Below are positions 1 to 39,521 of a stretch of 64,000 bases of DNA, one piece after another; position 1 is the first letter of the stretch; every line of letters begins with the position of its first letter. Source of the stretch: an uncultured Dehalococcoidia bacterium (GTDB lineage: Bacteria > Chloroflexota > Dehalococcoidia > Lucifugimonadales > CAJWER01); contig CAZSLO010000023.1 of the NCBI GenBank assembly GCA_964608025.1, positions 193,578 to 257,577 of the forward strand, given 5' to 3'. The notes under the pieces were generated by a model. The model was not told where the DNA came from. It saw only the letters and a program-made list of their open reading frames with translations, and did not search any database. Both the position numbers and the translations under genes were made by a program.

Positions 1-1391
1 AAAAGTACTATGTTGGGTATTGACCAGCGACTATGGACCAGCGGAGGATACTCGATGTGTTTCGATATGGTTATTTGCTGCTTTGCCAGCTTGGCTCGGA
101 ATGCGTCGATCCGCATAAGAGCAATAGGCATAGTGAGCCCCATTATCATAAATGCGGCAAAGATAGCGAGGCTTGCACCTATCCCGAATCCTACTACGGT
201 TTCTATGTCCGCAGACGCATTGGCTACGAATGCTATCGCGTCAGTGAACATAGCGAGAGTTAATGCACCTAAAACTCCTGCCATACCTATTTTCAAGGCA
301 GCCCTTGGATCTAGTCCCAACCCTCGTTCTTCTCTATAACGGTTTACAGCGTGAATTATAAAGTCGGCCCCTAGAGAAATCATTGCGATTGGCACTATGA
401 ATTCGAGGGTGGTAGATGAGTTTAGGCCGATCAGGTTTGACAGCCCTTTAAGCCACACGATCATCGCTCCAAGTCCAATAGCAGTTAGTAATACAACCCA
501 GCTTGATTTCAAGCTAATGCCCACGATCACGAGGACGGCAAGAAATGTAGCTATAATGAACGGTATCGCGGTGCCTACTTCATCCTCTAATTCAAGACTG
601 GCGTCAATAGCCATACCCCACAACTGGTAGGTTTCTTGATTACCGCGGAGTAATTCTTGAACCTTGCGATTGAAGTGTTCTTTGTCGACGGTGGCTTGAT
701 CGCTGGTTGTACCGATTCTCAGGCTGCCGCCGCCTAGTTTTTCGTTATCAGCCGCAACTCCGAAAGTGACTGCAGGTGAAGACCAAATATCGAATTTTTG
801 ATCGGAAACCACGGTCTTTTGACGCGATATTGAGTTGAGGAGAAAGGATGTCCTAGTGTCATTGAAAACATAGTTCAGGGCGAGCTTCACTTGGTTCTCA
901 CTTGCATCTACCAAAGTGGTATTTAAATCGGGATGATTTCGCATAACTTCGTCAACTGCATTTGCGATTGTGAAGATGCCTACCCTGGGTTGTTGGCGAT
1001 CAATGTTGAATCCATTGTAGAGGTACGACTGAGTTGGAAGGTTAGGTGGACTCAACTGGCCACTAATATCTGCCTTGCGGAGTTTCTCTGAATTTTCCAG
1101 GAGTTCTAACAAAGGCGCTTTGGTTAGTATGTCGCCATTGCGGGCCTCCACGACAAAGAACGCTCCGTGGATCCGTGGGGGCAGATTGGTATTGTATCGG
1201 TTCTCAAGGTCGTATACTGGCCCTCCTGGATTGTCCGAGGCTTGATCTTCAGGTGCCATTAACATCATAGGGAAAACTAGCAAGCCGGTGATTACGATCA
1301 TGGAAACGATGAACAATCCAGAGCTTTTTTCTAGTCTGTTTGCGGTGCGTTGAGCAAGGCTCAAGCGATCGCTCTTTGAATGATTGATCAA
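1..1391 (-). CDS. MMPL/RND-family transporter, N-terminal part (runs off window start; not in ORF track)
   Basis: Manual translation from TTG at 1391: MINHSKSDRLSLAQRTANRLEKSSGLFIVSMIVITGLLVFPMML (TM1), a soluble loop, then a TM bundle ...FIVPIAMISLGADFIIHAVNRYREER...GALTLAMFTDAIAF...GFGIGASLAIFAAF with the MMPL-type GxD motif. Confidence 0.85.
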   Translation of the reverse strand, partial: MINHSKSDRLSLAQRTANRLEKSSGLFIVSMIVITGLLVFPMMLMAPEDQASDNPGGPVYDLENRYNTNLPPRIHGAFFVVEARNGDILTKAPLLELLENSEKLRKADISGQLSPPNLPTQSYLYNGFNIDRQQPRVGIFTIANAVDEVMRNHPDLNTTLVDASENQVKLALNYVFNDTRTSFLLNSISRQKTVVSDQKFDIWSSPAVTFGVAADNEKLGGGSLRIGTTSDQATVDKEHFNRKVQELLRGNQETYQLWGMAIDASLELEDEVGTAIPFIIATFLAVLVIVGISLKSSWVVLLTAIGLGAMIVWLKGLSNLIGLNSSTTLEFIVPIAMISLGADFIIHAVNRYREERGLGLDPRAALKIGMAGVLGALTLAMFTDAIAFVANASADIETVVGFGIGASLAIFAAFMIMGLTMPIALMRIDAFRAKLAKQQITISKHIEYPPLVHSRWSIPNIVL

Positions 1392-1409
1392 GTTTCGAAT
1401 TTTTGGGGT

Positions 1410-3101
1410 TTAGGCCGGGTTATTTCGGTGAGCCTTATCGATCTTGGACCAGGTATCCCTTAAGGAAACCGTATGATTAAAAACTAGGGCTTCTGGAACA
1501 GACTCTTTTGAATCTATGCAAAAGTATCCGCGGCGTTCGAATTGAAACCGGTCCCCTGGGGATGCATCTGACATGCTAGGCTCAACGCGGGAGTTGGTTA
1601 GTGTCTTAATAGAATTAGGATTCAGCATGAAGTCTTCGGATGAGCAGATGTCGTTTTCAATGAACAGATGGTTGTAGATTCTAATTTGGGCTGGTAATGA
1701 CTGAGCAGCTGATACCCAGTGAATTGTGCCCTTAACCCTCCTCCCGTCTGGAGCTTGTCCACCTCGAGTTTCAGGGTCATAAGTACATCTCAACTCTATG
1801 ACTTCTCCCGTAATATCATCCTTGATGACCTCTGTACAGGTGATGAAATATCCGTACCGAAGCCGTACTTCGCGTCCAATTGCAAGCCTAAAGAATTTTT
1901 TGGGTGGATTCTCACTGAAGTCATCCCGTTCCACGTAAATCTCACGTGAGAATGGGAGCATACGTATCCCTGAAGAAGGATCTTCGGGATTGTTAATAGC
2001 TTTTAATTCTTCTACTTTGCCCTCTGGATAATTCTCTATAATAATTTTGAGAGGATCGAGTACCGCCAGCACTCGGTCGGATGTCTTGTTCAAGTCCTCT
2101 CTTAGGCAGTGCTCCAGCAGTGCCATTTCGATGGTGTTATTCCGTTTAGCAATCCCGATCCGATCGCAGAAAACACGTATAGATTCGGGCGTATAACCTC
2201 TACGCCGCATGCCTGATATCGTTGGCATTCTAGGGTCATCCCACCCGTCAACATGGCCATCCGTGACTAGCTGAAGTAGTTTCCGTTTACTCATTACAGT
2301 ACTTTCCAGATCAAGTCTGGCGAATTCGATTTGCCTAGGATGGTAAATTTCCAGCTCGTTTAGGAGCCAGTCATATAGAGGTCGGTGGTCCTCGAATTCG
2401 ATGGTACAGATTGAGTGCGTGACTCCTTCAATCGAATCTGATTGCCCATGGGCAAAGTCGTAGGTAGGATAAATACACCACTTGTTTCCAGTCCGGTGAT
2501 GATCGGACTTAAGGATTCGATAAATTACGGGGTCGCGCATGTTGAGATTTCCGGAAGCCATGTCGATTTTTGCTCTGAGTACCCGTGAACCTTCCTCAAA
2601 CTTGCCTTGGCGCATTTCTTGGAATAGTCTGATATTTTCTTCTACGCTTCTATTACGGTAGGGACTCTCTTTACCGGGCAGCTTAAGGGTTCCTCGGTAT
2701 TCCTTGATTTCCTCTTGGGTCAAGTCGCAAACGTATGCCTTGGATTTCTCTATTAGTCTAATAGCATAGTCAGAAAGAGTGTCGAAGTAATCTGACGAAT
2801 ATAAGGTTCGGCTGCCCCAGTCGAAACCTAGCCATCGCAAGTCTTCTTGGAAGGACCTAATATACTCGATCTCTTCCTTGGTGGGATTGGTATCGTCGAA
2901 ACGCAAATTGCAATGGCCACCGTTTTCATTTGCAATGCTGAAATTTAGATGGGCCGATTTAGCATGGCCGATATGCATATACCCATTTGGCTCAGGGGGG
3001 AATCGAGTTATTACACGCCCGCCGAACCTTCCAGATGCATTATCTTCTTGGACTGCGGTCCGGATGAAGTCCTTCGCCGTGGATTTTTCGTTGGTTGTCA
3101 A
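1410..3101 (-). CDS. glnS: Glutamine--tRNA ligase
   Basis: [15 protein letters not shown] (HIGH), [41 protein letters not shown]; GlnRS-type beta-barrel C-terminus. Confidence 0.95.
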
Positions 3102-3144
3102 TCTATACCTTTTGGAGAATCGTAGAAGCAGTAATCGGATTTAT

Positions 3145-5799
3145 TTATAGTGGTCTACCTTCCATGTCTACATGTACTATTGGGTGGCCCAAATTTTTGA
3201 TATTTGATTCTATGGATTTACGGTCTCCTACTACCAGTATCACCAAATTCTGGTCGTCAATACGCCTGCTGGCAGTCTCTCGGACTTGTTCTAGGCTGAC
3301 TGATTCTAGGCTGGACATGAAAGTTGCGTAATAGTCCAGAGGGAGTCCGAATTGGACCAATCTTCCGAGCCCGTTCAGTATCTGGCCTTGAGTTTGGAAT
3401 TGTGATGGGAGACTGCGGTATATGCTTTGCTTAGCTTGGTTTATCTCATCGGCTGTGATTGGGTTATCACCTCGTATATTGGAGAATTCCTTAATTGTTT
3501 CTATGAGCGATTCCTTGGTAACGGCAGTTTGCACTGATCCGCCTGCAAGTAAAGCTGACGGACCGGCCATCCAGTCGATGTTCGAATAGTATCCATAGCT
3601 GTATCCTTTATCTTGTCGGAGATTCATGAAGAGTCTAGAAGTGGCATGGGCGCCGAAGATGTAATTAATTAATGTCATTGCGAAGAAGTCAGGATCATGC
3701 CGCGGGATTGTTACGTGTCCAGCTTGTATCACTGACTGAGGGGCGTTGGGTCGATCTACCAGGTAGATTGTCGTGGGGTTATTGCCAATGGTTTGTGAAT
3801 TGGGAGAGGAATTTGGACTAATTGTCGTGCCAGACCAATTACCCAAAAGATCTTCTGCTTTAGATAGAAGCGTTGCCTGATCTACATCGCCGATGGCTAT
3901 AAGCGTAGCGTTCTGAGGACTGAAGTAACTTGAATAATGCTTTTTTAGATGATTGACACGTATGCTGCTAATGGACTTTTTGGTACCGATTCCCGGATGG
4001 CCGTAAATCGAGTCGGGACCGTATAGCAGAGACTTTGTCGCTCTTTGGGCGATAGACATTGGATCGTCTGCGATTCGTTCAAGGTCTGTTAGTCTTTCTT
4101 TGCGTATCCTAGTCAATTCCTTAGATGGGAAAGAGGGATTCTGTACTAAGTCTGCTAATATATCGAATGCATCCGTCCAATGTGTGGTCAATGTTTCGGT
4201 GAATATTAAGATTTGTTCCCGGCTGGTGCTGAAGTGGATTTGGGATCCAAGAAATTCCATCTCTTCAGCTATATCTTGGGTGCTTCGCGATCCCGTGCCT
4301 TCAGCAAGCATTGCGGTGGTAATGCTTGCAAGCCCAGGTTGTTCTAGAGGATCAGATGCCTGGCCACTGCGAATCGCCACACCGAATGCTACTACAGGTA
4401 ACTCACGTTTTTCTATGAACATCACATCTAGCCCATTAGAAAGCGTGTCCCTCTTTGGGATAGGAGGGCTAAAATCATTTTGTAAACCGGCAGAAGGCAT
4501 GACCGATCTATCGATGGATACCGAAGTAGCTTTCTTGGGCCTTTCTGGCTGTATCTCCATGCGTACCCTATCCGTGTTGAGCCAACGTTTCGCCGCTTGC
4601 TGAATATCTTTACTGGTAACCCGGTTGAATCTTTCTAGATCCGTATTTATATTGTCGGGATCGCCCGTGAAGACATTGTAGAGGTTCAACTGGTCTGCCC
4701 TGCCACCAAAACCTCCGATCGACTCAAGCTGTCGTATATGTTGGCTATTGATCCGGTTTTTGGCACGCTGTAGTTCGCGTACAGACAAGGATTTATTTAA
4801 TATGTCGTCCAATTCTTCTTCTACTATGGTATGTATTTCTTCTAGATCGTGTCCGGGGTTCGCAGTGATTTGGATGTTAAATTCACCTGCTATTTCACGA
4901 GCATAATTATAGGCACTTACGTCATGTGCTATCTGTTTTTCATATACAAGGGTTTTGTAAAGGCGTGAGCTCTTGCCGTCTGCAAGTACAGTAGCAAGAA
5001 TGTCTAATGGAGCTTCGTCGTCGTCAAACGCTGGCGTAGATGGCCACACGAGATAAAGCCTAGGAAGCTGTACATTATCTGAGAAATTGAGACGAGTTTC
5101 TTTAGTTAGAGGGGATTCCATTCTTCCTATTCGATTGACCGTGGGCGCAGGTGATAAATTTCCGAAGTATCTCTCTACTAGGTCTCGTGTTTCATCCCTA
5201 TTTATATCCCCGGCGATAGCAAGACTCGCATTGGAAGGTGAATAAAACCGTCGAAAGAAGGACTGAATATCTTCTAAAGACGCGGCGTCTAAGTCCTCTT
5301 GGGAGCCTATTACAGGCCAACTATAGGGGTGAGGTAAAGGGAAAAGAGCTGGTTGTAGCAGAAGGTATGACATGCCGTATGGCCTATTCTCATAACTTTG
5401 GCGTCTTTCGTTCTTCACCACGTCTCGCTGGACATCGAGGCGTTTTTGGTCGAGAGCTTCTAGTAGGAAACCCATTCGGTCAGCCTCGAGCCATAAAGCA
5501 AGTTCGAGGTGGTCTGAAGGGACGTTTTCCCAGTAGTTCGTACGATCCGAGGTTGTAGATCCATTAACGGATCCCCCAATCTTTTGTAAGGGGTTGAAGA
5601 ACAGTTCATTGTGATTCTTCGAACCTTCAAACATCACGTGCTCAAAAAGATGTGCGAAGCCGGTCCGGCCTTGATCTTCATCTTTTGATCCAACGTGGTA
5701 CCAGATATTTACTGCGGCAATAGGTAAGGAATGATCCTCATGCAGTATGACATTGAGTCCATTTGGCAAAATAAATTTTTCGAAAGCGATAGATACCAT
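3145..5799 (-). CDS. M16 (pitrilysin/insulinase) zinc peptidase, fused two-module form
   Basis: HLFEH inverted zinc motif, NGSTTSDRTNY; second module with LRQDKGYSYG; GGAG RBS. Confidence 0.92.
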   Translation of the reverse strand: MVSIAFEKFILPNGLNVILHEDHSLPIAAVNIWYHVGSKDEDQGRTGFAHLFEHVMFEGSKNHNELFFNPLQKIGGSVNGSTTSDRTNYWENVPSDHLELALWLEADRMGFLLEALDQKRLDVQRDVVKNERRQSYENRPYGMSYLLLQPALFPLPHPYSWPVIGSQEDLDAASLEDIQSFFRRFYSPSNASLAIAGDINRDETRDLVERYFGNLSPAPTVNRIGRMESPLTKETRLNFSDNVQLPRLYLVWPSTPAFDDDEAPLDILATVLADGKSSRLYKTLVYEKQIAHDVSAYNYAREIAGEFNIQITANPGHDLEEIHTIVEEELDDILNKSLSVRELQRAKNRINSQHIRQLESIGGFGGRADQLNLYNVFTGDPDNINTDLERFNRVTSKDIQQAAKRWLNTDRVRMEIQPERPKKATSVSIDRSVMPSAGLQNDFSPPIPKRDTLSNGLDVMFIEKRELPVVAFGVAIRSGQASDPLEQPGLASITTAMLAEGTGSRSTQDIAEEMEFLGSQIHFSTSREQILIFTETLTTHWTDAFDILADLVQNPSFPSKELTRIRKERLTDLERIADDPMSIAQRATKSLLYGPDSIYGHPGIGTKKSISSIRVNHLKKHYSSYFSPQNATLIAIGDVDQATLLSKAEDLLGNWSGTTISPNSSPNSQTIGNNPTTIYLVDRPNAPQSVIQAGHVTIPRHDPDFFAMTLINYIFGAHATSRLFMNLRQDKGYSYGYYSNIDWMAGPSALLAGGSVQTAVTKESLIETIKEFSNIRGDNPITADEINQAKQSIYRSLPSQFQTQGQILNGLGRLVQFGLPLDYYATFMSSLESVSLEQVRETASRRIDDQNLVILVVGDRKSIESNIKNLGHPIVHVDMEGRPL

Positions 5800-34389: not shown

Positions 34390-35052
34390 CTAATTGTTGC
34401 GGTTATCCTTAATTTTGTCGAACATAATTGGAGGGAGAGGGAAAACCCAACCACGATTAACTATGATTTCGGTTGACAGAGTTGCTGGGATTGCCACGAT
34501 GATTTCAGGTTCTACAGAGAATGAGCCGCCAAATCCACCAATTGCACTTCGTGTATGCACACCAGCGAAACCGCCCGGATCAATCCCATTATCCGCGTAA
34601 TCACTCATGCCTCCGCCAAATACCGATTGCCAACGAAACGAGAATCCGTTGGTTACAGGTGGCCCTACATTGGATGCATTCCCAGCTGGAGAAACTACCA
34701 TTCCTAGTGCCTTGACAGTATAAAGCAGGTCATTGAGGTCACCCTTGCCATCGCAATTTAGGGCCCAGTGAAGGCGCTTTATCATCTCATCCGCTGCATC
34801 TTGGGCGCCCTGGCGACCATGTTCAATAGTCTCGGGATTGTCTGTCATCGGTTCTGTTCCTGCTGTATAGCCAGAAAGGTAGACTAGGCCACTCTCGTGA
34901 AATACAACGTTGGCAATGCCTTGGCCCGATAGTGATGTAACGTTTTCCTCAAATGTTCCGAGATCAATTCCTAGTTCGTTGATCCGATCATATACGTCGA
35001 AACTTCTCCTTAGTTCGTCTGGAATAGAAGCTGCATCATAATGGTATCCCAT
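34390..35052 (-). CDS. Divergent RidA/YjgF (Rid)-fold protein
   Basis: GLVYLSG, VKALGMV, NGFS, GVHTRSAIG, VEPEIIV; GAGGA SD before ATG 35052. Confidence 0.65.
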   Translation of the reverse strand: MGYHYDAASIPDELRRSFDVYDRINELGIDLGTFEENVTSLSGQGIANVVFHESGLVYLSGYTAGTEPMTDNPETIEHGRQGAQDAADEMIKRLHWALNCDGKGDLNDLLYTVKALGMVVSPAGNASNVGPPVTNGFSFRWQSVFGGGMSDYADNGIDPGGFAGVHTRSAIGGFGGSFSVEPEIIVAIPATLSTEIIVNRGWVFPLPPIMFDKIKDNRNN

Positions 35053-35152
35053 GCTATGTCCTCGTTTGAATTCTCTGATATTAATAGTTGAACGGAGATC
35101 GAATGTTACCAGAAAGGTGTTACTTGACCAATGCTCGGGGTATGATGCGACT

Positions 35153-35788
35153 ATGACCAAAGAAGTTTCTATCGGTGTCGTAGTTTCTATTGATCAGGAT
35201 CCGACTGATTACCTGGCAGCCGTTCGGAGGGCTGGTGGAGAGCCAAAAAAAATGGTGCTCCCTGATCTGGACTGGATGAAAATGGACGGATTGTTGATGG
35301 CAGCTGGGCCTCAATCGCACGTCATTGAGGAACGAGGAACTCTAGACAAGGCAATTTCATGTGTTTCGAATGCGCTCGACCACGATTTGCCTATTCTTGC
35401 AATTGCAGATGGCTTTCTATCTTTTAACCGAGCTGCAGGGGGCTCGTTCGTGGAGTTAATTGATCATGCTGAGGATCTTGGAGAACAAGGATCTTCATCG
35501 TATCATCGAATTTATATCACGCCTGGAGGAAAGCTGGCAGCCATTGTTGGTTCTGGGGGATTCGTGAGGGTTAATAGTCGCCATAGCTTAGGGATCAGGG
35601 AGGCTCAAAAGGCGGAAGGACTTCTAGCGACTGCATATTCATTGGAAGATGGGTTAATAGAGGCACTAGAGAGCCCGGACCACAAGTGGGCTATTGGGGT
35701 ACAGTTTAGTCCCGAACGACGTATGGAAATCCCACCACACTTTGATCGCCTATTTGAAGCACTAGTCATAAAGTCGGCTGGGAATTAG
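35153..35788 (+). CDS. Peptidase C26/PuuD-like glutamine-amidotransferase-fold protein lacking catalytic Cys and His
   Basis: DYLAAVRRAGG, MDGLLM, PILAIADG (vs PxLGICRG), VNSRH, DGLIEALE, GVQFSPE (vs GVQWHPE). Confidence 0.8.
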   Translation: MTKEVSIGVVVSIDQDPTDYLAAVRRAGGEPKKMVLPDLDWMKMDGLLMAAGPQSHVIEERGTLDKAISCVSNALDHDLPILAIADGFLSFNRAAGGSFVELIDHAEDLGEQGSSSYHRIYITPGGKLAAIVGSGGFVRVNSRHSLGIREAQKAEGLLATAYSLEDGLIEALESPDHKWAIGVQFSPERRMEIPPHFDRLFEALVIKSAGN

Positions 35789-35805
35789 CCCAAGTTTTAG
35801 TAGCT

Positions 35806-36546
35806 CTAAATAGTATTGGTGCCAGGATAGTTCTTGATGAGATCTATGAGGCTTAAAACGAAGTTTCGGTCTGTGTCTGAAATCTGGAAAAGGTCTACAG
35901 AGACGCTCAGGCTGACACTTCCGCCGCTATTGAGGTTTATTAAAGTGCGGTTGGCATTTTGGGAATCGATTTGACCTATTTGGATTGATTTAGCGGGTGG
36001 CTTGCCAGCCTTGACGTGAGTTGGGCTAGCCTGTCTGACTTCCTCAGCAATGCCGCCGTAAGATCCCGACTTCGACCGGAGCTTTGCCATCTTTGCCACG
36101 GCGTTTGACATCGGTATGTCGGCTTCTTTTGCTGCATTCACGAAGAAAGAGATGGCTTTACGAAGCGTGTGCCCATCTATTGGATAGGTACTGAACCATT
36201 GACGTACCATTGCTGGAGTAGCTCTTGGAAGTTCCTCGAATGGCACGATCACATATGATTCTGTAAGGATAACTCTTAATATCATACGCCATTCTTCTAT
36301 TGTGGAATTAGCCATTTTGTCCAGAGCCTTGGTGGGGGAGTCGTCGACCAGTAGTCTTAGAAATCGCATAGCTGCTACCAATTGGGTTCCGTTGCTGCCA
36401 CTGAATTTTACCTGCCAAAAAGATCGATCGAATCTCAGCGGAACACCTTCTTCACGAAGCCAACTTCGAAGTGAGCGGAAAGTGGTAAAGCTGATGTAGG
36501 GTGGCGGAGCTAGCCTCCCTTGGCCCGAGATAGAATTCTGGTTCAT
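35806..36546 (-). CDS. DUF5343-like protein (putative DNA-binding)
   Basis: PPYISFTTF...PLRFDRSFW...SGSNGTQLVAAMRFLRL...KAISFF..AA, a low-complexity linker, and a C-terminal SGGSVSLSVSVDLF...DRNFV module; recognised from memory. Confidence 0.7.
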   Translation of the reverse strand: MNQNSISGQGRLAPPPYISFTTFRSLRSWLREEGVPLRFDRSFWQVKFSGSNGTQLVAAMRFLRLLVDDSPTKALDKMANSTIEEWRMILRVILTESYVIVPFEELPRATPAMVRQWFSTYPIDGHTLRKAISFFVNAAKEADIPMSNAVAKMAKLRSKSGSYGGIAEEVRQASPTHVKAGKPPAKSIQIGQIDSQNANRTLINLNSGGSVSLSVSVDLFQISDTDRNFVLSLIDLIKNYPGTNTI

Positions 36547-36560
36547 GCGATATGCCTACG

Positions 36561-36685
36561 ATGCCACAAAGGTAGTGGAATGATGTAGAAACCTGACTTT
36601 CAAACCTAGTGTATACCCTCAACGCAAATAATGCCACTAGCGTGTGGCATTGGCCCGGACAAAAATTGAAACTGCTTTGTGGCAT
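36561..36685. repeat. Four ATGCCAC/GTGGCAT half-sites, including an 11-bp long-range inverted repeat and an 8-bp-arm palindrome
   Basis: ATGCCACAAAG 36561-36571 / CTTTGTGGCAT 36675-36685; AATGCCAC-tagcgt-GTGGCATT 36630-36651. Confidence 0.75.
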
Positions 36686-36694
36686 GGCTAAAAT
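36666..36694 (+). promoter_or_regulatory. Sigma70 promoter of a candidate small RNA
   Basis: TTGAAA (36666-36671), 17 nt, TAAAAT (36689-36694). Confidence 0.65.
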
Positions 36695-36699
36695 GGCTA

Positions 36700-36812
36700 G
36701 GTGTTGGCTCGTAATGCCAATGCCCCCAAAAGGGACCTGCCAAGTTTGTGAGAGGCTTGAGCAGGATCCAAGGCACCCCGGAGGAGGCGCCTAGTGCGCC
36801 CCTCCGGGCTTA
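36700..36812 (+). ncRNA. Candidate structured small RNA (about 110 nt), family not recognised
   Basis: GC-rich island with hairpins TTGGC/GCCAA, GGA-CCTGC-CAAGTTT/AGGCTTG-GCAGG-TCC and CCCGGAGG-GGCGC/GCGCC-CCTCCGGG, directly downstream of a promoter. Confidence 0.55.
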
Positions 36813-36863
36813 ATACTAAATACCCGAATATATGCATGATGATAATAATCCAGATACAATATA

Positions 36864-36872
36864 TGGTATACT
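36864..36872 (+). promoter_or_regulatory. Extended -10 element for gyrA
   Basis: TGgTATACT about 125 nt upstream of gyrA ATG; overlaps a possible opposite-strand TTGACT-18-TATACC. Confidence 0.5.
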
Positions 36873-36998
36873 CTAACAAGGATACAAGAGTCAAGAGTCT
36901 AGTCGATTAATGATATAGATCGTAAGCTTAAGGGAATCTAATAATTGGATCTATCCTTCGTATCCTCAGTCTCCAAATAAACTCTCCTGGAGATATCT

Positions 36999-39521
36999 AT
37001 GGTCTTAAAAACAGAACATGGTTACATAAAGCCACAACATCTGGAAGAAGAAATGCGCACGTCCTATATGGACTATGCAATGAGTGTGATTGTATCCCGC
37101 GCACTACCGGATGTTCGTGATGGCCTAAAGCCCGTACAACGCAGGATACTTTACGCCATGCAGGGACTTGGTATGAGGCCGAATTCTTCCTATAAGAAGA
37201 GTGCAAGGCTGGTTGGAGAAGTTCTGGGTAAATACCATCCTCATGGAGATGCCTCTGTATATGATGCGATGGTCCGTATGGCCCAGGATTTCTCGATGCG
37301 GGTTCCGCTGGTTGATGGTCAAGGTAATTTTGGCAGTGTTGATAACGATCCACCGGCAGCCATGCGTTATACCGAAGCCAGGCTTAGTTCCGCGGCTGAG
37401 GAAATGCTTGCGAATCTGGATCAAGAAACCGTAGATTTCACTGAAAACTTTGATTCCAGCTTACAAGAACCAGTGCTTTTGCCTGCTAGATTGCCGAATC
37501 TTTTGGCTAACGGTGCGGCCGGTATTGCAGTTGGCATGGCTACGAACATTCCGCCTCATAATTTGTCAGAGTTGTGTGATGCTATCTATCTGTTACTAAG
37601 AAATCCAGAGGCTACAACAGCTCAGCTGATGAAGCGCGTTAAAGGGCCTGATTTTCCCACGGGCTCGACGATAATGGGTAATGCAGGGATCTATGATGCC
37701 TATGAGACTGGACGGGGCCAGATTGTAGTCAGGGCAACCGCAATTATTGAACCGATGAAACGATCAAATCGCATGCATATCGTTGTAAGTGAACTACCCT
37801 ACCAAGTAAACAAGGCTGCTCTTATAGAGAAGATAGCTAGTCTGATGAAGAGCAAGAAACTGGAAGGTCTATCAGAAATACGTGATGAATCAGACCGCCG
37901 TGGGATGCGTATAGTGATGGAATTGAGATCCGGTGCACAGGGGCTGGTAGTACTCAACAATTTATATAAACTAACCCCCATGCAGAGTACTTTCTCGGCG
38001 AATATGCTTGCCTTGGTTGACGGTACTCCTAGAATGATCACTTTACGAGATGCGTTGCTTGAATACATAAAATTCAGGCGTCAGGTTGTTGTCCGTCGAT
38101 CAGAATTCGAATTACGGAAGGCTAAGGATCGGTCCCATGTACTTGAGGGCCTGAGGATAGCACTATCTAATCTGGATGCGATCATAGCGCTGATTCGTAA
38201 TGCTGCAGATGCTGACACTGCTAAGACACAGTTGATGGAATGGCATTCACTTACATCTGTACAGGCACAGGCGATTTTGGACATGCAGTTGCGACGTATT
38301 GCCGCTTTGGAGAGAGAGCGTATAGAGAATGAATTTAACGAGCTTCAGGCTACGATCCGGGAATTAGAAGAACTTTTAAACAGTCCCGAAAAAGTAGATG
38401 CTGAGGTGAAAAAAGAAACACAAGCGGTTAAGAAAAAACATGGAGAAGAGAGACGTACAATAATCGGAGATGACCTCCGAGAGTTCAAAAGAGAGGACCT
38501 CGAAGCACACGAGCAAGTGGTGATAACTCTTAGTAAGGGAGGGTACGTAAAGCGCATACAGGCGGGTGTCTATCGTAATCAGCACCGAGGCGGCAAGGGT
38601 GTTACTAGTATGACTACGCGTGAGGATGACCCTGTGAAGCATATCCTTGTGTGCGATACCCACGACACCTTACTTTTCTTTACTAACACGGGTAGAGTCT
38701 TGCCACTAAAGTCATATGAGTTGAGAGCTGATCTTTCTCGAAATACTCGTGGCGTACCGGTAGTAAACATAATTCCACTTACAGATAAGGAACACATCAA
38801 CTCCGTGGTTGCTGTGTCAAATCTAAACAAAGAAGATCAATATTTGGTTTTGGCTACAAAGAGTGGCCAGATCAAGCGAGTTTCTTTTGATCAACTCTCT
38901 AATATTCGCCGCGCTGGACTTATAATCATGAATCTAAGGGGTAATGACGAACTCGTCACAGCCCGTCTAGCTGCAGAGGATGACCATGTGATAATGGTCA
39001 CCCAACAGGGTATGTCGATTCGTTTCCCTATAACAGAAGTAACTGCGCGTCTTCGGGCTGCGGGTGGTGTTAGGGGTGTCCTTTTGCTCAACAGAGATAA
39101 AGTTATCGCTATGGACATAGTGATTCATGATAGTAAGCTCTTGGTGATCAGTAAAAAGGGTTATGGGAAGCTTACTGATCTCAATCGATATAGAACTCAA
39201 GGTCGTGGTGGTAAAGGTATCAAGACTCTTAATGTGACTAAAAAAACTGGACAGGTGGCTGCGGCCCAGGTGATTGCGGACAGCGATGAACTATACGTAG
39301 TATCAGCGAAGGCACAGGTTCTTCGTACAAACTTATCAGAGATTCGCAGTACGGGAAGGGCAACTCAAGGTGTTACGATATTCAAACTGGAGTCTGGAGA
39401 TTCCGTAGCTTCGATAGCATGTGTATCGGAATTAGAGATACCTGACGCCGAAACGGGTGTAACCATGATCTCTACGAATGGAAAACGCAATGGCAATGTT
39501 TCGAAGAGAGACTCGAAATAG
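36999..39521 (+). CDS. gyrA: DNA gyrase subunit A
   Basis: [39 protein letters not shown] catalytic Tyr, GyrA-box QHRGGKG, beta-pinwheel repeats. Confidence 0.97.

Follow-up and report, generated by a model that had tools for sequence, protein, structure and literature searches.

A previously undescribed three-hairpin small RNA encoded back-to-back with a DUF5343-like gene in uncultured Chloroflexota

OxyS, a bacterial small RNA (sRNA), is encoded divergently from oxyR, and RsaE/RoxS of the Firmicutes carry unpaired C-rich motifs that pair with G-rich ribosome-binding regions. The SAR202-type Chloroflexota are abundant uncultured ocean bacteria. As set out in part of one account, SgrR-SgrS and GcvA-GcvB are established divergent pairs of regulator and sRNA genes, and sgrR and gcvA have served as a genomic handle for sRNA homologues that BLASTN misses (PMC2760817). 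Here we describe a structured RNA of ~110 nt in a 64,000-nt stretch of DNA (the window; C23:193578-257577) from an uncultured Chloroflexota bacterium (G000, the genome under study; a 2.08-Mb assembly, 94%-complete). The RNA sits in a 452-nt gap between a minus-strand open reading frame (ORF) of 246 aa (35806-36546), whose DUF5343-like product we call P0001, and gyrA (36999-39521). It is a previously undescribed small RNA: a conserved promoter of its own, a covarying three-hairpin fold and the lack of an Rfam family all support the 'novel sRNA' proposed in an earlier note on this DNA. On balance, we favour the reading that it is a stand-alone sRNA acting in trans and that the DUF5343-like protein is its regulator, the two forming a pair of the SgrR-SgrS kind.

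DNA of the window is present in marine metagenomes. The nearest relatives of its gyrA are those of Dehalococcoidia and Chloroflexota metagenome-assembled genomes, at no more than 67% identity, and relatives of the 246-aa protein are labelled Chloroflexi or SAR202 cluster. A literature search, in which subscription journals were not covered and SAR202 papers were judged by title, found no regulatory RNA of SAR202-type Chloroflexota, no work on DUF5343 or on PDC-M34, and nothing relevant on a C-rich sRNA in Chloroflexi or a noncoding RNA at Dehalococcoidia gyrA.

A conserved, covarying three-hairpin fold

On the plus strand, the RNA has a minimum free energy (MFE) of -62.0 kcal/mol (z -6.08), and none of 200 shuffled sequences was as stable; the minus strand folds less stably (-56.2, z -4.14). 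In a survey of the whole assembly outside ORFs of at least 100 aa, using 114-nt strand-windows at a step of 30, the RNA window had the lowest MFE of all 7,974 strand-windows, with the next other locus at -55.4. The plus-strand MFE structure consists of three hairpins, termed H1, H2 and H3, with the following elements.

36700-36724, plus strand: H1, the 5'-terminal hairpin, 9 bp with a 7-nt loop, GGUGUUGGC / GCCAAUGCC (MFE)
36725-36732, plus strand: C-rich unpaired linker CCCAAAAG, which together with the last H1 bases reads GCCCCCAAAAG (MFE)
36733-36769, plus strand: H2, 15 bp with two bulges and the loop GUGAG (MFE)
36767-36776, plus strand: UCCAAGGCAC, the counterpart here of a conserved unpaired motif, CCCCAAAGCA, between H2 and H3
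36777-36808, plus strand: H3, a GC-rich 13-bp 3' hairpin, probably the 3' end or terminator (MFE)

These are the three stems that the earlier note had placed here, its TTGGC/GCCAA stem now extended to the 9-bp H1, and four G-U pairs read from the MFE fold bear out its statement that such pairs are limited to the plus strand. Two further pairings that it had suggested found no support. A helix closing the RNA through GGTG and CACC is missing from both the MFE and the centroid structure, where GGUG is paired in H1, and is without a counterpart in most relatives. An alternative pairing beginning at 36697 would need a transcription start just 3 nt after the -10 box and is not conserved. A strain 99% identical in DNA, detected in a DNA sequencing run, differs by a C>T change at 36740, which turns a C-G pair of H2 into U-G, and by an A>C change at 36730 in the linker.

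The RNA matches no family in Rfam. Searching the whole window with Rfam 15 (4227 models) gave no match at the gathering score, and a cmscan check of the RNA region, as the earlier note had advised, gave no Rfam match at E<=10 in 36400-37100. When seven relatives' loci were searched, the sole Rfam match was to RMST_1, a model of a vertebrate long noncoding RNA; as it reached 21.6 bits (E 0.42) where the gathering score is 40, we regard it as chance. Small signal recognition particle (SRP) RNA (RF00169) has no match in the region, and the SRP RNA of this genome, genomes normally carrying a single one, lies on a different contig at C12:20580-20679 (77.5 bits). Likewise, 6S RNA (RF00013), a hairpin of ~185 nt with a central bubble, gave no match in the region, where the fold is one of three hairpins in ~110 nt; in the 94%-complete genome as a whole, RF00013 has no match at E<=1. 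ARAGORN found no transfer RNA (tRNA), transfer-messenger RNA or tRNA-like gene at the locus. A small ORF within the RNA was also rejected: its AUG-started frame has 26 codons here versus 12 in genus g3, so it is not conserved.

Homologues of the RNA were found through its structure and its gene neighbour. BLASTN against 60 relatives gave chance matches only (best outside the genome under study, E 0.06). A covariance model built from the sequence of this genome and its fold alone (R1) gave matches at E<=1 in 8 of 101 genomes, the genome itself included. Four of these matches are full-length, come from the same GTDB family and lie, in the same orientation as here, between gyrA and a 57%-identical homologue of the 246-aa gene. 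A second model (R2), built from those four matches and leaving out G000, found the candidate as the sole match in that genome at E<=10 (34.8 bits, E 0.002) and added three syntenic copies, two of them from another family; run unfiltered, it gave a match beside the gene in 15 of 19 loci with a close homologue of the gene versus 0 of 8 with a distant one. A third model (R3), built from 14 sequences, recovered two copies that had been kept out of it, those of G181 (81.6 bits) and G017 (18.6 bits, E 0.017).

Searching 401 genomes of the order with the 246-aa protein gave a match in 52 and a near full-length homologue in 19, the genome under study included; the other 18 are 49-59% identical and, together with it, span families f1 (four genera), f59, f25, f4 and f15. 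The RNA is present in all 19 of these genomes. Promoter and RNA can be read in all 18 complete loci; in the nineteenth (G091), the contig breaks off directly behind the promoter, and the end of another contig carries the RNA (66.4 bits) and gyrA. On wider samples, R3 gave only two hairpins without gene context in 150 genomes of the class and matches in 14 of 151 genomes of the order, ten of which are known copies. Matches with neither gene nor promoter were judged to be chance or other hairpin elements, namely those of R1 in G027, G066 and G093 and those of R3 in G536, G505 and L221 and in G050, G057, G122 and G066; the R3 match in G050 may be distantly related to the RNA. The element in G066 is a GC-rich two-hairpin sequence of ~80 nt in at least three near-identical copies (C69:80554-80633, C25:81055-81134 and C72:37105-37183; loci L237 and L238). 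It scores up to 41 bits with R3, adjoins no DUF5343-like gene or promoter and is probably an unrelated repeat.

The earlier note had called for covariation among relatives, and compensatory change is seen in 32 of 41 pairs of a 14-sequence alignment. In this alignment 88.9% of cells are paired, compared with 71.4% in shuffled controls and 39-50% when partners are slid; the 32 of 41 pairs changed on both sides compare with 17.7 (shuffled) and 5-16 (slid), and the covariation score of 0.504 with 0.211 and at most 0.17, respectively. Compensatory changes occur in 3 of 8 pairs of H1, where 92.5% of cells are paired, in 11 of 15 pairs of H2 and in 17 of 17 pairs of H3. Folding single sequences, which requires no alignment, gave the H1-H2-H3 layout in 16 of 18 copies (z -3.8 to -8.0), and relatives' H1 differs in sequence while keeping the same fold, as with UGUCAGUUU/GAACUGAUA in G017. 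G-U cells outnumber A-C cells by 40 to 19, which, together with the promoter conserved on the plus strand, places the RNA on that strand.

The best conserved sequence of the family is the unpaired CCCCAAAGCA between H2 and H3, with near-invariant columns; its anchors CCAAAGCA/G/UG are found in 13 of the 17 copies printed. The linker between H1 and H2 is C-rich in family f1 only. Two copies depart from the common layout. In G181 (L208:1201-1331, minus strand; 131 nt), H1 is tandemly duplicated, with GUGUUGGCC..GCCAAUACC occurring twice. In G110 (L205:1234-1320, minus strand; 87 nt), H1, the CCCCCAAAGCA motif and H3 are retained while H2 is a 4-bp hairpin, so H2 may be dispensable.

The shared control region and the DUF5343-like protein

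Between the RNA and the DUF5343-like gene lies an intergenic region of ~150 bp, in which an asymmetric site, TTGTGGCAY, recurs several times. A pair of these sites makes up a palindrome, and another lies between the -35 and -10 boxes of the RNA promoter. The elements of this region are as follows.

36560-36566, no strand assigned: a further ATGCCAC site, in the 5' region of the DUF5343-like gene
36608-36615, minus strand: probable -10 of the DUF5343-like gene, TACACT or TATACA (pattern only)
36631-36650, no strand assigned: palindrome ATGCCAC-N6-GTGGCAT (TGCCA-N8-TGGCA), a putative operator
36657-36694, plus strand: RNA promoter, with GGACAA, -35 TTGAAA (36666-36671), a 17-nt spacer and -10 TAAAAT (36689-36694)
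36679-36685: third GTGGCAT site, inside the RNA promoter spacer

The TTGAAA-17-TAAAAT promoter named by the earlier note is thus in place and agrees with the consensus at 10 of 12 positions. A promoter scan of 36000-37400 gave this site and no other, against an average of 2.1 sites in shuffled sequences. By itself the match therefore does not exceed chance; the promoter is credible because it is conserved in relatives, recurring wherever the DUF5343-like gene has a close homologue (19 genomes). Relatives show GGACAA, then TTGAAA or a one-base variant as the -35, a spacer of 17-18 nt and TAAAAT, TAAACT, TAGACT or TAATTT as the -10. The putative operator is conserved as well: both halves of TGCCA-N8-TGGCA (N7 in f15) are found in 17 of 18 loci and TGGCA within the RNA promoter spacer in 18 of 18, and TGCCA-N8-TGGCA is unique in the whole assembly. 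A minus-strand terminator called at the palindrome was dismissed as a mis-call of the terminator scan. Towards the DUF5343-like gene, relatives have TAGAAT, TAAGAT or TACAAT aligned to its probable -10, and the GTGGCAT half of the palindrome occupies the expected -35 position of its promoter (pattern only). Sites of the form (A/G)TGCCACAA, comparable to that at 36560-36566, occur near the promoter of this gene in other lineages.

P0001 has no Pfam hit at E<=10, no NCBIfam hit and no match among the defence systems of PADLOC, and no relative was found in viral contigs, where a phage origin would have pointed. The label 'DUF5343-like' from the earlier note is apt only in a distant sense, through a homologue and ESM Atlas links, but P0001 itself is without a Pfam hit. 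Its nearest ESM Atlas clusters are DUF5343 (score 0.95), and of homologues ~34-36% identical over the N-domain, one passes the PF17278 gathering score of 27 with 31.6 bits and one fails with 18.1 bits; PF17278 was found in 2 of the 120 relatives listed. The protein has at least 157 relatives, which suggests that many further loci exist. The AlphaFold model, with a mean predicted local distance difference test score of 80.8 and values >90 over residues 10-155, has three parts.

Residues 10-155: N-domain, predicted helical fold containing a winged helix
Residues 158-197: linker, disordered
Residues 199-238: C-terminal domain, a beta-hairpin and a helix, specific to the RNA-linked subfamily

Exhaustive structure alignment of the model gave FokI (Z 7.0), N.BspD6I (6.7), BrxA (6.4), 3BHW (5.6), BpuJI (5.6) and SspB (5.3) as the best matches, all six covering 134-145 residues (model residues 10-152) with a root-mean-square deviation of 3.5-4.0 and 7-9% identity; next came MarR- and SarA-type winged helices on residues 19-81. 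Five of the six, N.BspD6I not among them, have been grouped as a double helix-turn-helix (HTH) fold binding double-stranded DNA, and FokI and BpuJI read asymmetric DNA sites, according to the portion of the source consulted (PMC9240713). Because these two enzymes read asymmetric sites, a fold of their kind fits the asymmetric 9-bp site found here in several orientations. A sequence profile search of the PDB gave chance matches only (E >=1.5), and the C-terminal domain has no usable ESM Atlas match and no informative structural match.

Distant DUF5343 homologues from other families of the order (L218-L228) have this promoter layout too, but their site is TTTGGAAY. Their intergenic regions contain a palindrome built from ATTCCAAA/TTTGGAAT sites, GGACAnTTTTTGAAA, and, within the spacer of the promoter, one more TTTGGAAY. 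In L223 and L225, the two loci scanned with Pfam, a gene with ParB_N and HTH_ParB domains takes the place of the RNA: the DUF5343 homologue at 1369-2178 (minus strand) stands beside a ParB-like gene at 2317-3270 (plus strand) in L223, and the homologue at 1276-1986 beside a divergent ParB-like gene at 2061-3047 in L225. The C-terminal domain differs accordingly in type, being NQT..L.SGG.V.L.V.VDLF.LS..DR.FV in the RNA-linked proteins and KYPDFDP.W...VQ.KW..GM.KLY in the ParB-linked ones. A second, 29%-identical paralogue in family f36 (L235, G173:C38:36300-40300; gene at 1840-2505) has a TGCCA-N8-TGGCA palindrome upstream and neither a recognisable RNA promoter nor an RNA copy.

In the mechanism that we favour, the RNA would be transcribed on the plus strand from 36700 to ~36812 from its own sigma-70-type promoter. 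The DUF5343-like protein, through its predicted bi-lobed HTH domain, would bind the TTGTGGCAY sites and control, probably repress, both its own promoter and that of the RNA; repression is favoured because one such site lies between the -35 and -10 boxes. Once released, the RNA would act in trans, and the conserved unpaired C-rich motif would be its likeliest contact, for G-rich messenger RNA (mRNA) segments or for a protein.

Where such an RNA would end is uncertain, since H3 lacks a U-tract in every lineage. H3 is a GC-rich hairpin of the kind expected of a terminator, but its tail here is CUUAAUAC. The earlier note had read CTTAAT after H3 as a weak U-tract; CTTAAT is indeed there, but it contains no U-run and the terminator scan made no call. 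In a survey of 260 gene 3' flanks of this genome, 24 strong hairpins were found with mixed tails, both U-tailed and U-less.

For expression, we compared Logan contigs of three RNA runs and one DNA run with 35500-37900. The metatranscriptome X15 gave contigs identical to parts of the neighbouring amidotransferase gene, the 246-aa gene and gyrA (35556-36081, 37032-37192). As these matches are exact, the X15 library contained the organism or a strain nearly identical to it, although DNA carry-over may account for the contigs. No contig of X16 matched, and X18 gave divergent gyrA pieces only.

Several observations weigh against the regulator-sRNA pair. At the 3' end, no U-run follows H3 in any of the 17 tails printed, across lineages, while canonical U-tailed terminators do occur in this genome. 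The figure of 32 of 41 compensatory pairs comes from an alignment fitted by a covariance model and hence biased to structure, and the shuffle control of 17.7 overstates the covariation because the sequences are kin. No model detected the two RNA copies of family f15, in which the 5' half is remodelled and the z values are weak (-2.8, -2.0); conversely, four genomes of the order give 25-41 bits with R3 in the absence of gene and promoter. The motif of the genome under study is degenerate and the most deviant version in the family, UCCAAGGCA. No X15 contig covers 36391-36957, though contigs say little on a 110-nt RNA. Duplexes of the motif with the 5' regions of the partner and downstream genes were no better than shuffles in 18 loci, and no match to Hfq (PF17209) was found in the 94%-complete genome. 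On the protein side, Z values of 5.3-7.0 are below 8, which, by the tool's own warning, may mean merely a common arrangement, and Foldseek gave nothing at E<=0.001, with BrxA at a probability of 0.60-0.69 and E ~0.7. We take the factor that would bind the TGGCA sites to be the DUF5343-like protein; it could be another factor.

Competing explanations

The DUF5343-like protein might instead bind the RNA directly as a ribonucleoprotein, its C-terminal domain holding the RNA at CCCCAAAGCA or H1, while in the sister subfamily the other C-terminal domain would pair with the ParB-like protein partner. We hold this, the main rival, to be unlikely, if still worth serious attention. RNA and gene are adjacent in 19 of 19 genomes, over five families and in two downstream contexts, but regulation would explain this adjacency equally well. 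The type of the C-terminal domain switches with the type of partner, RNA or ParB-like, yet this domain is without an informative structural or language-model match. The H1 of family f1 includes AATGCCAA, a sequence similar to the DNA site ATGCCAC; this likeness is lost in f4, f25 and f15, where H1 covaries freely.

Less probable again is an exchange of partners, in which a BrxA/FokI-like DNA-binding protein swapped a ParB-like partner for a structured RNA and its C-terminal domain changed along. If this were the case, the RNA would serve a chromosome-associated complex of SAR202-type bacteria as a functional subunit or as a cofactor, rather than being an ordinary mRNA-targeting sRNA, and the module would have been retained beside gyrA in most lineages.

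Action in cis on gyrA, whether as a read-through leader or attenuator or because transcription alters supercoiling at a supercoiling-sensitive gyrA promoter, appears very improbable. The genes concerned are arranged in the window as follows.

35051-35788, plus strand: Peptidase_C26 amidotransferase gene
35806-36546, minus strand: DUF5343-like gene (P0001), 246 aa (ORF), the divergent, constant neighbour of the RNA
36864-36872, plus strand: extended -10-like TGGTATACT, probably a separate gyrA promoter (pattern only)
36999-39521, plus strand: gyrA, with Pfam DNA_topoisoIV and DNA_gyraseA_C, the 3' neighbour and not a constant partner of the RNA

In favour of a cis effect, 17 of 19 genomes have gyrA 3' of the RNA and in the same orientation, and read-through is possible because H3 lacks a U-tract. 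In the two f15 genomes, however, the RNA is still divergent from the 246-aa gene while gyrA is found 80 kb off on the same contig (G084) or on another contig (G028), and the RNA is followed by a convergent gene. Upstream of gyrA, R3 has no match in G028, G084, G001 and G005, the best score there being 9.6 bits (E 0.28), and 80 metagenomic gyrA loci gave none either. In genus g2, of the same family, the amidotransferase gene stands directly before gyrA, and none of nine genomes has a match to the DUF5343-like gene or to R1. Using gyrA as the handle over 74 genome and 80 metagenome loci brought up no relative near enough to compare at the DNA level; gyrA identity among them reached at most 67% full-length and 78% over the N-terminal 200 residues. 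The separate extended -10 that the earlier note had seen before gyrA is present, as a pattern, and 14 of 16 loci have TGnTAnnnT in the interval from H3 to gyrA. Complementarity between the motif and the downstream leader is not conserved. The 'switchable attenuator upstream of gyrA' that the earlier note had also considered is accordingly not upheld: the RNA is present without gyrA in two genomes, it is not found before gyrA in the four genomes and 80 metagenomic loci, an extended -10-like motif mostly follows H3, and the alternative pairing is not conserved. Being always back-to-back with the DUF5343-like gene, the RNA is the partner of that gene, a link that the earlier note had missed, and not a control element of gyrA.

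Two features of the wider neighbourhood are recorded here. Two relatives without the module have a conserved gyrA leader of ~270 nt (L033:2230-2500, L034:2215-2480) after TGCTATAAT or TGCTACAAT; it is alignable between both genomes, and this long 5' untranslated region may be structured. In the window, a 256-aa ORF without a family match (34390-35160, minus strand) overlaps the start of the amidotransferase gene by ~110 nt; this ORF, or one of the two overlapping gene starts, may be spurious.

Least credible of all is that there is no functional RNA here, only DNA-level inverted repeats or a decaying 5' leader relic of a lost ParB-like gene: the same promoter layout does drive the ParB-like gene with a ~130-nt leader in the sister subfamily, and no transcript of the RNA was seen in the Logan contigs, which cannot show a small RNA, but the stems vary in sequence yet stay paired (32 of 41 pairs compensatory), G-U cells exceed A-C cells (40 vs 19), H2 is bulged, the promoter is kept in 19 genomes, and a relic would not hold a fold with z of -4 to -8 over five families.

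Comparison with described systems

The locus adds a well-defined new sRNA family, in which promoter, putative operator and fold are all clear, and its covariance model can be used to annotate SAR202-type genomes. It also offers a first functional handle on DUF5343, a family of no known function: a sequence-specific DNA-binding domain is predicted, the conserved sites look cognate to it, and one subfamily has an RNA as its partner where another has a ParB-like protein. As the system is small, comprising one protein, 150 bp of DNA and one 110-nt RNA, it is testable in vitro or in E. coli, with no need for culturing the host.

The modelled N-domain of P0001, predicted to be a bi-lobed HTH DNA-recognition domain, may share its fold with BrxA, the D1-D2 domains of FokI, BpuJI and SspB, the structural scores being middling. 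Unlike the BrxA/FokI group, it has no nuclease or BREX context and carries an extra C-terminal domain.

The RNA shares with RsaE/RoxS a length of ~100-115 nt, a stand-alone gene, a putatively regulated promoter and C-rich unpaired segments between hairpins, and differs from them in giving no Rfam match at E<=10, in its hairpin layout, in its phylum and in its motif, CCCCAAAGCA.

The closest parallel is with SgrR-SgrS and GcvA-GcvB. As in those pairs, the sRNA has a promoter of its own and runs divergently from a gene whose product is a predicted DNA-binding protein, with conserved putative operators in the shared intergenic region (divergent in 19 of 19 genomes); and, like sgrR and gcvA, the gene of that protein was the handle by which RNA copies were located here, where BLASTN did not find them. 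In contrast to those pairs, P0001 is neither LysR- nor SgrR-type but a DUF5343 relative with a predicted BrxA/FokI-like double-HTH fold, and the host is an uncultured member of the Chloroflexota in which no Hfq was found and the 3' hairpin of the RNA is without a U-tail.

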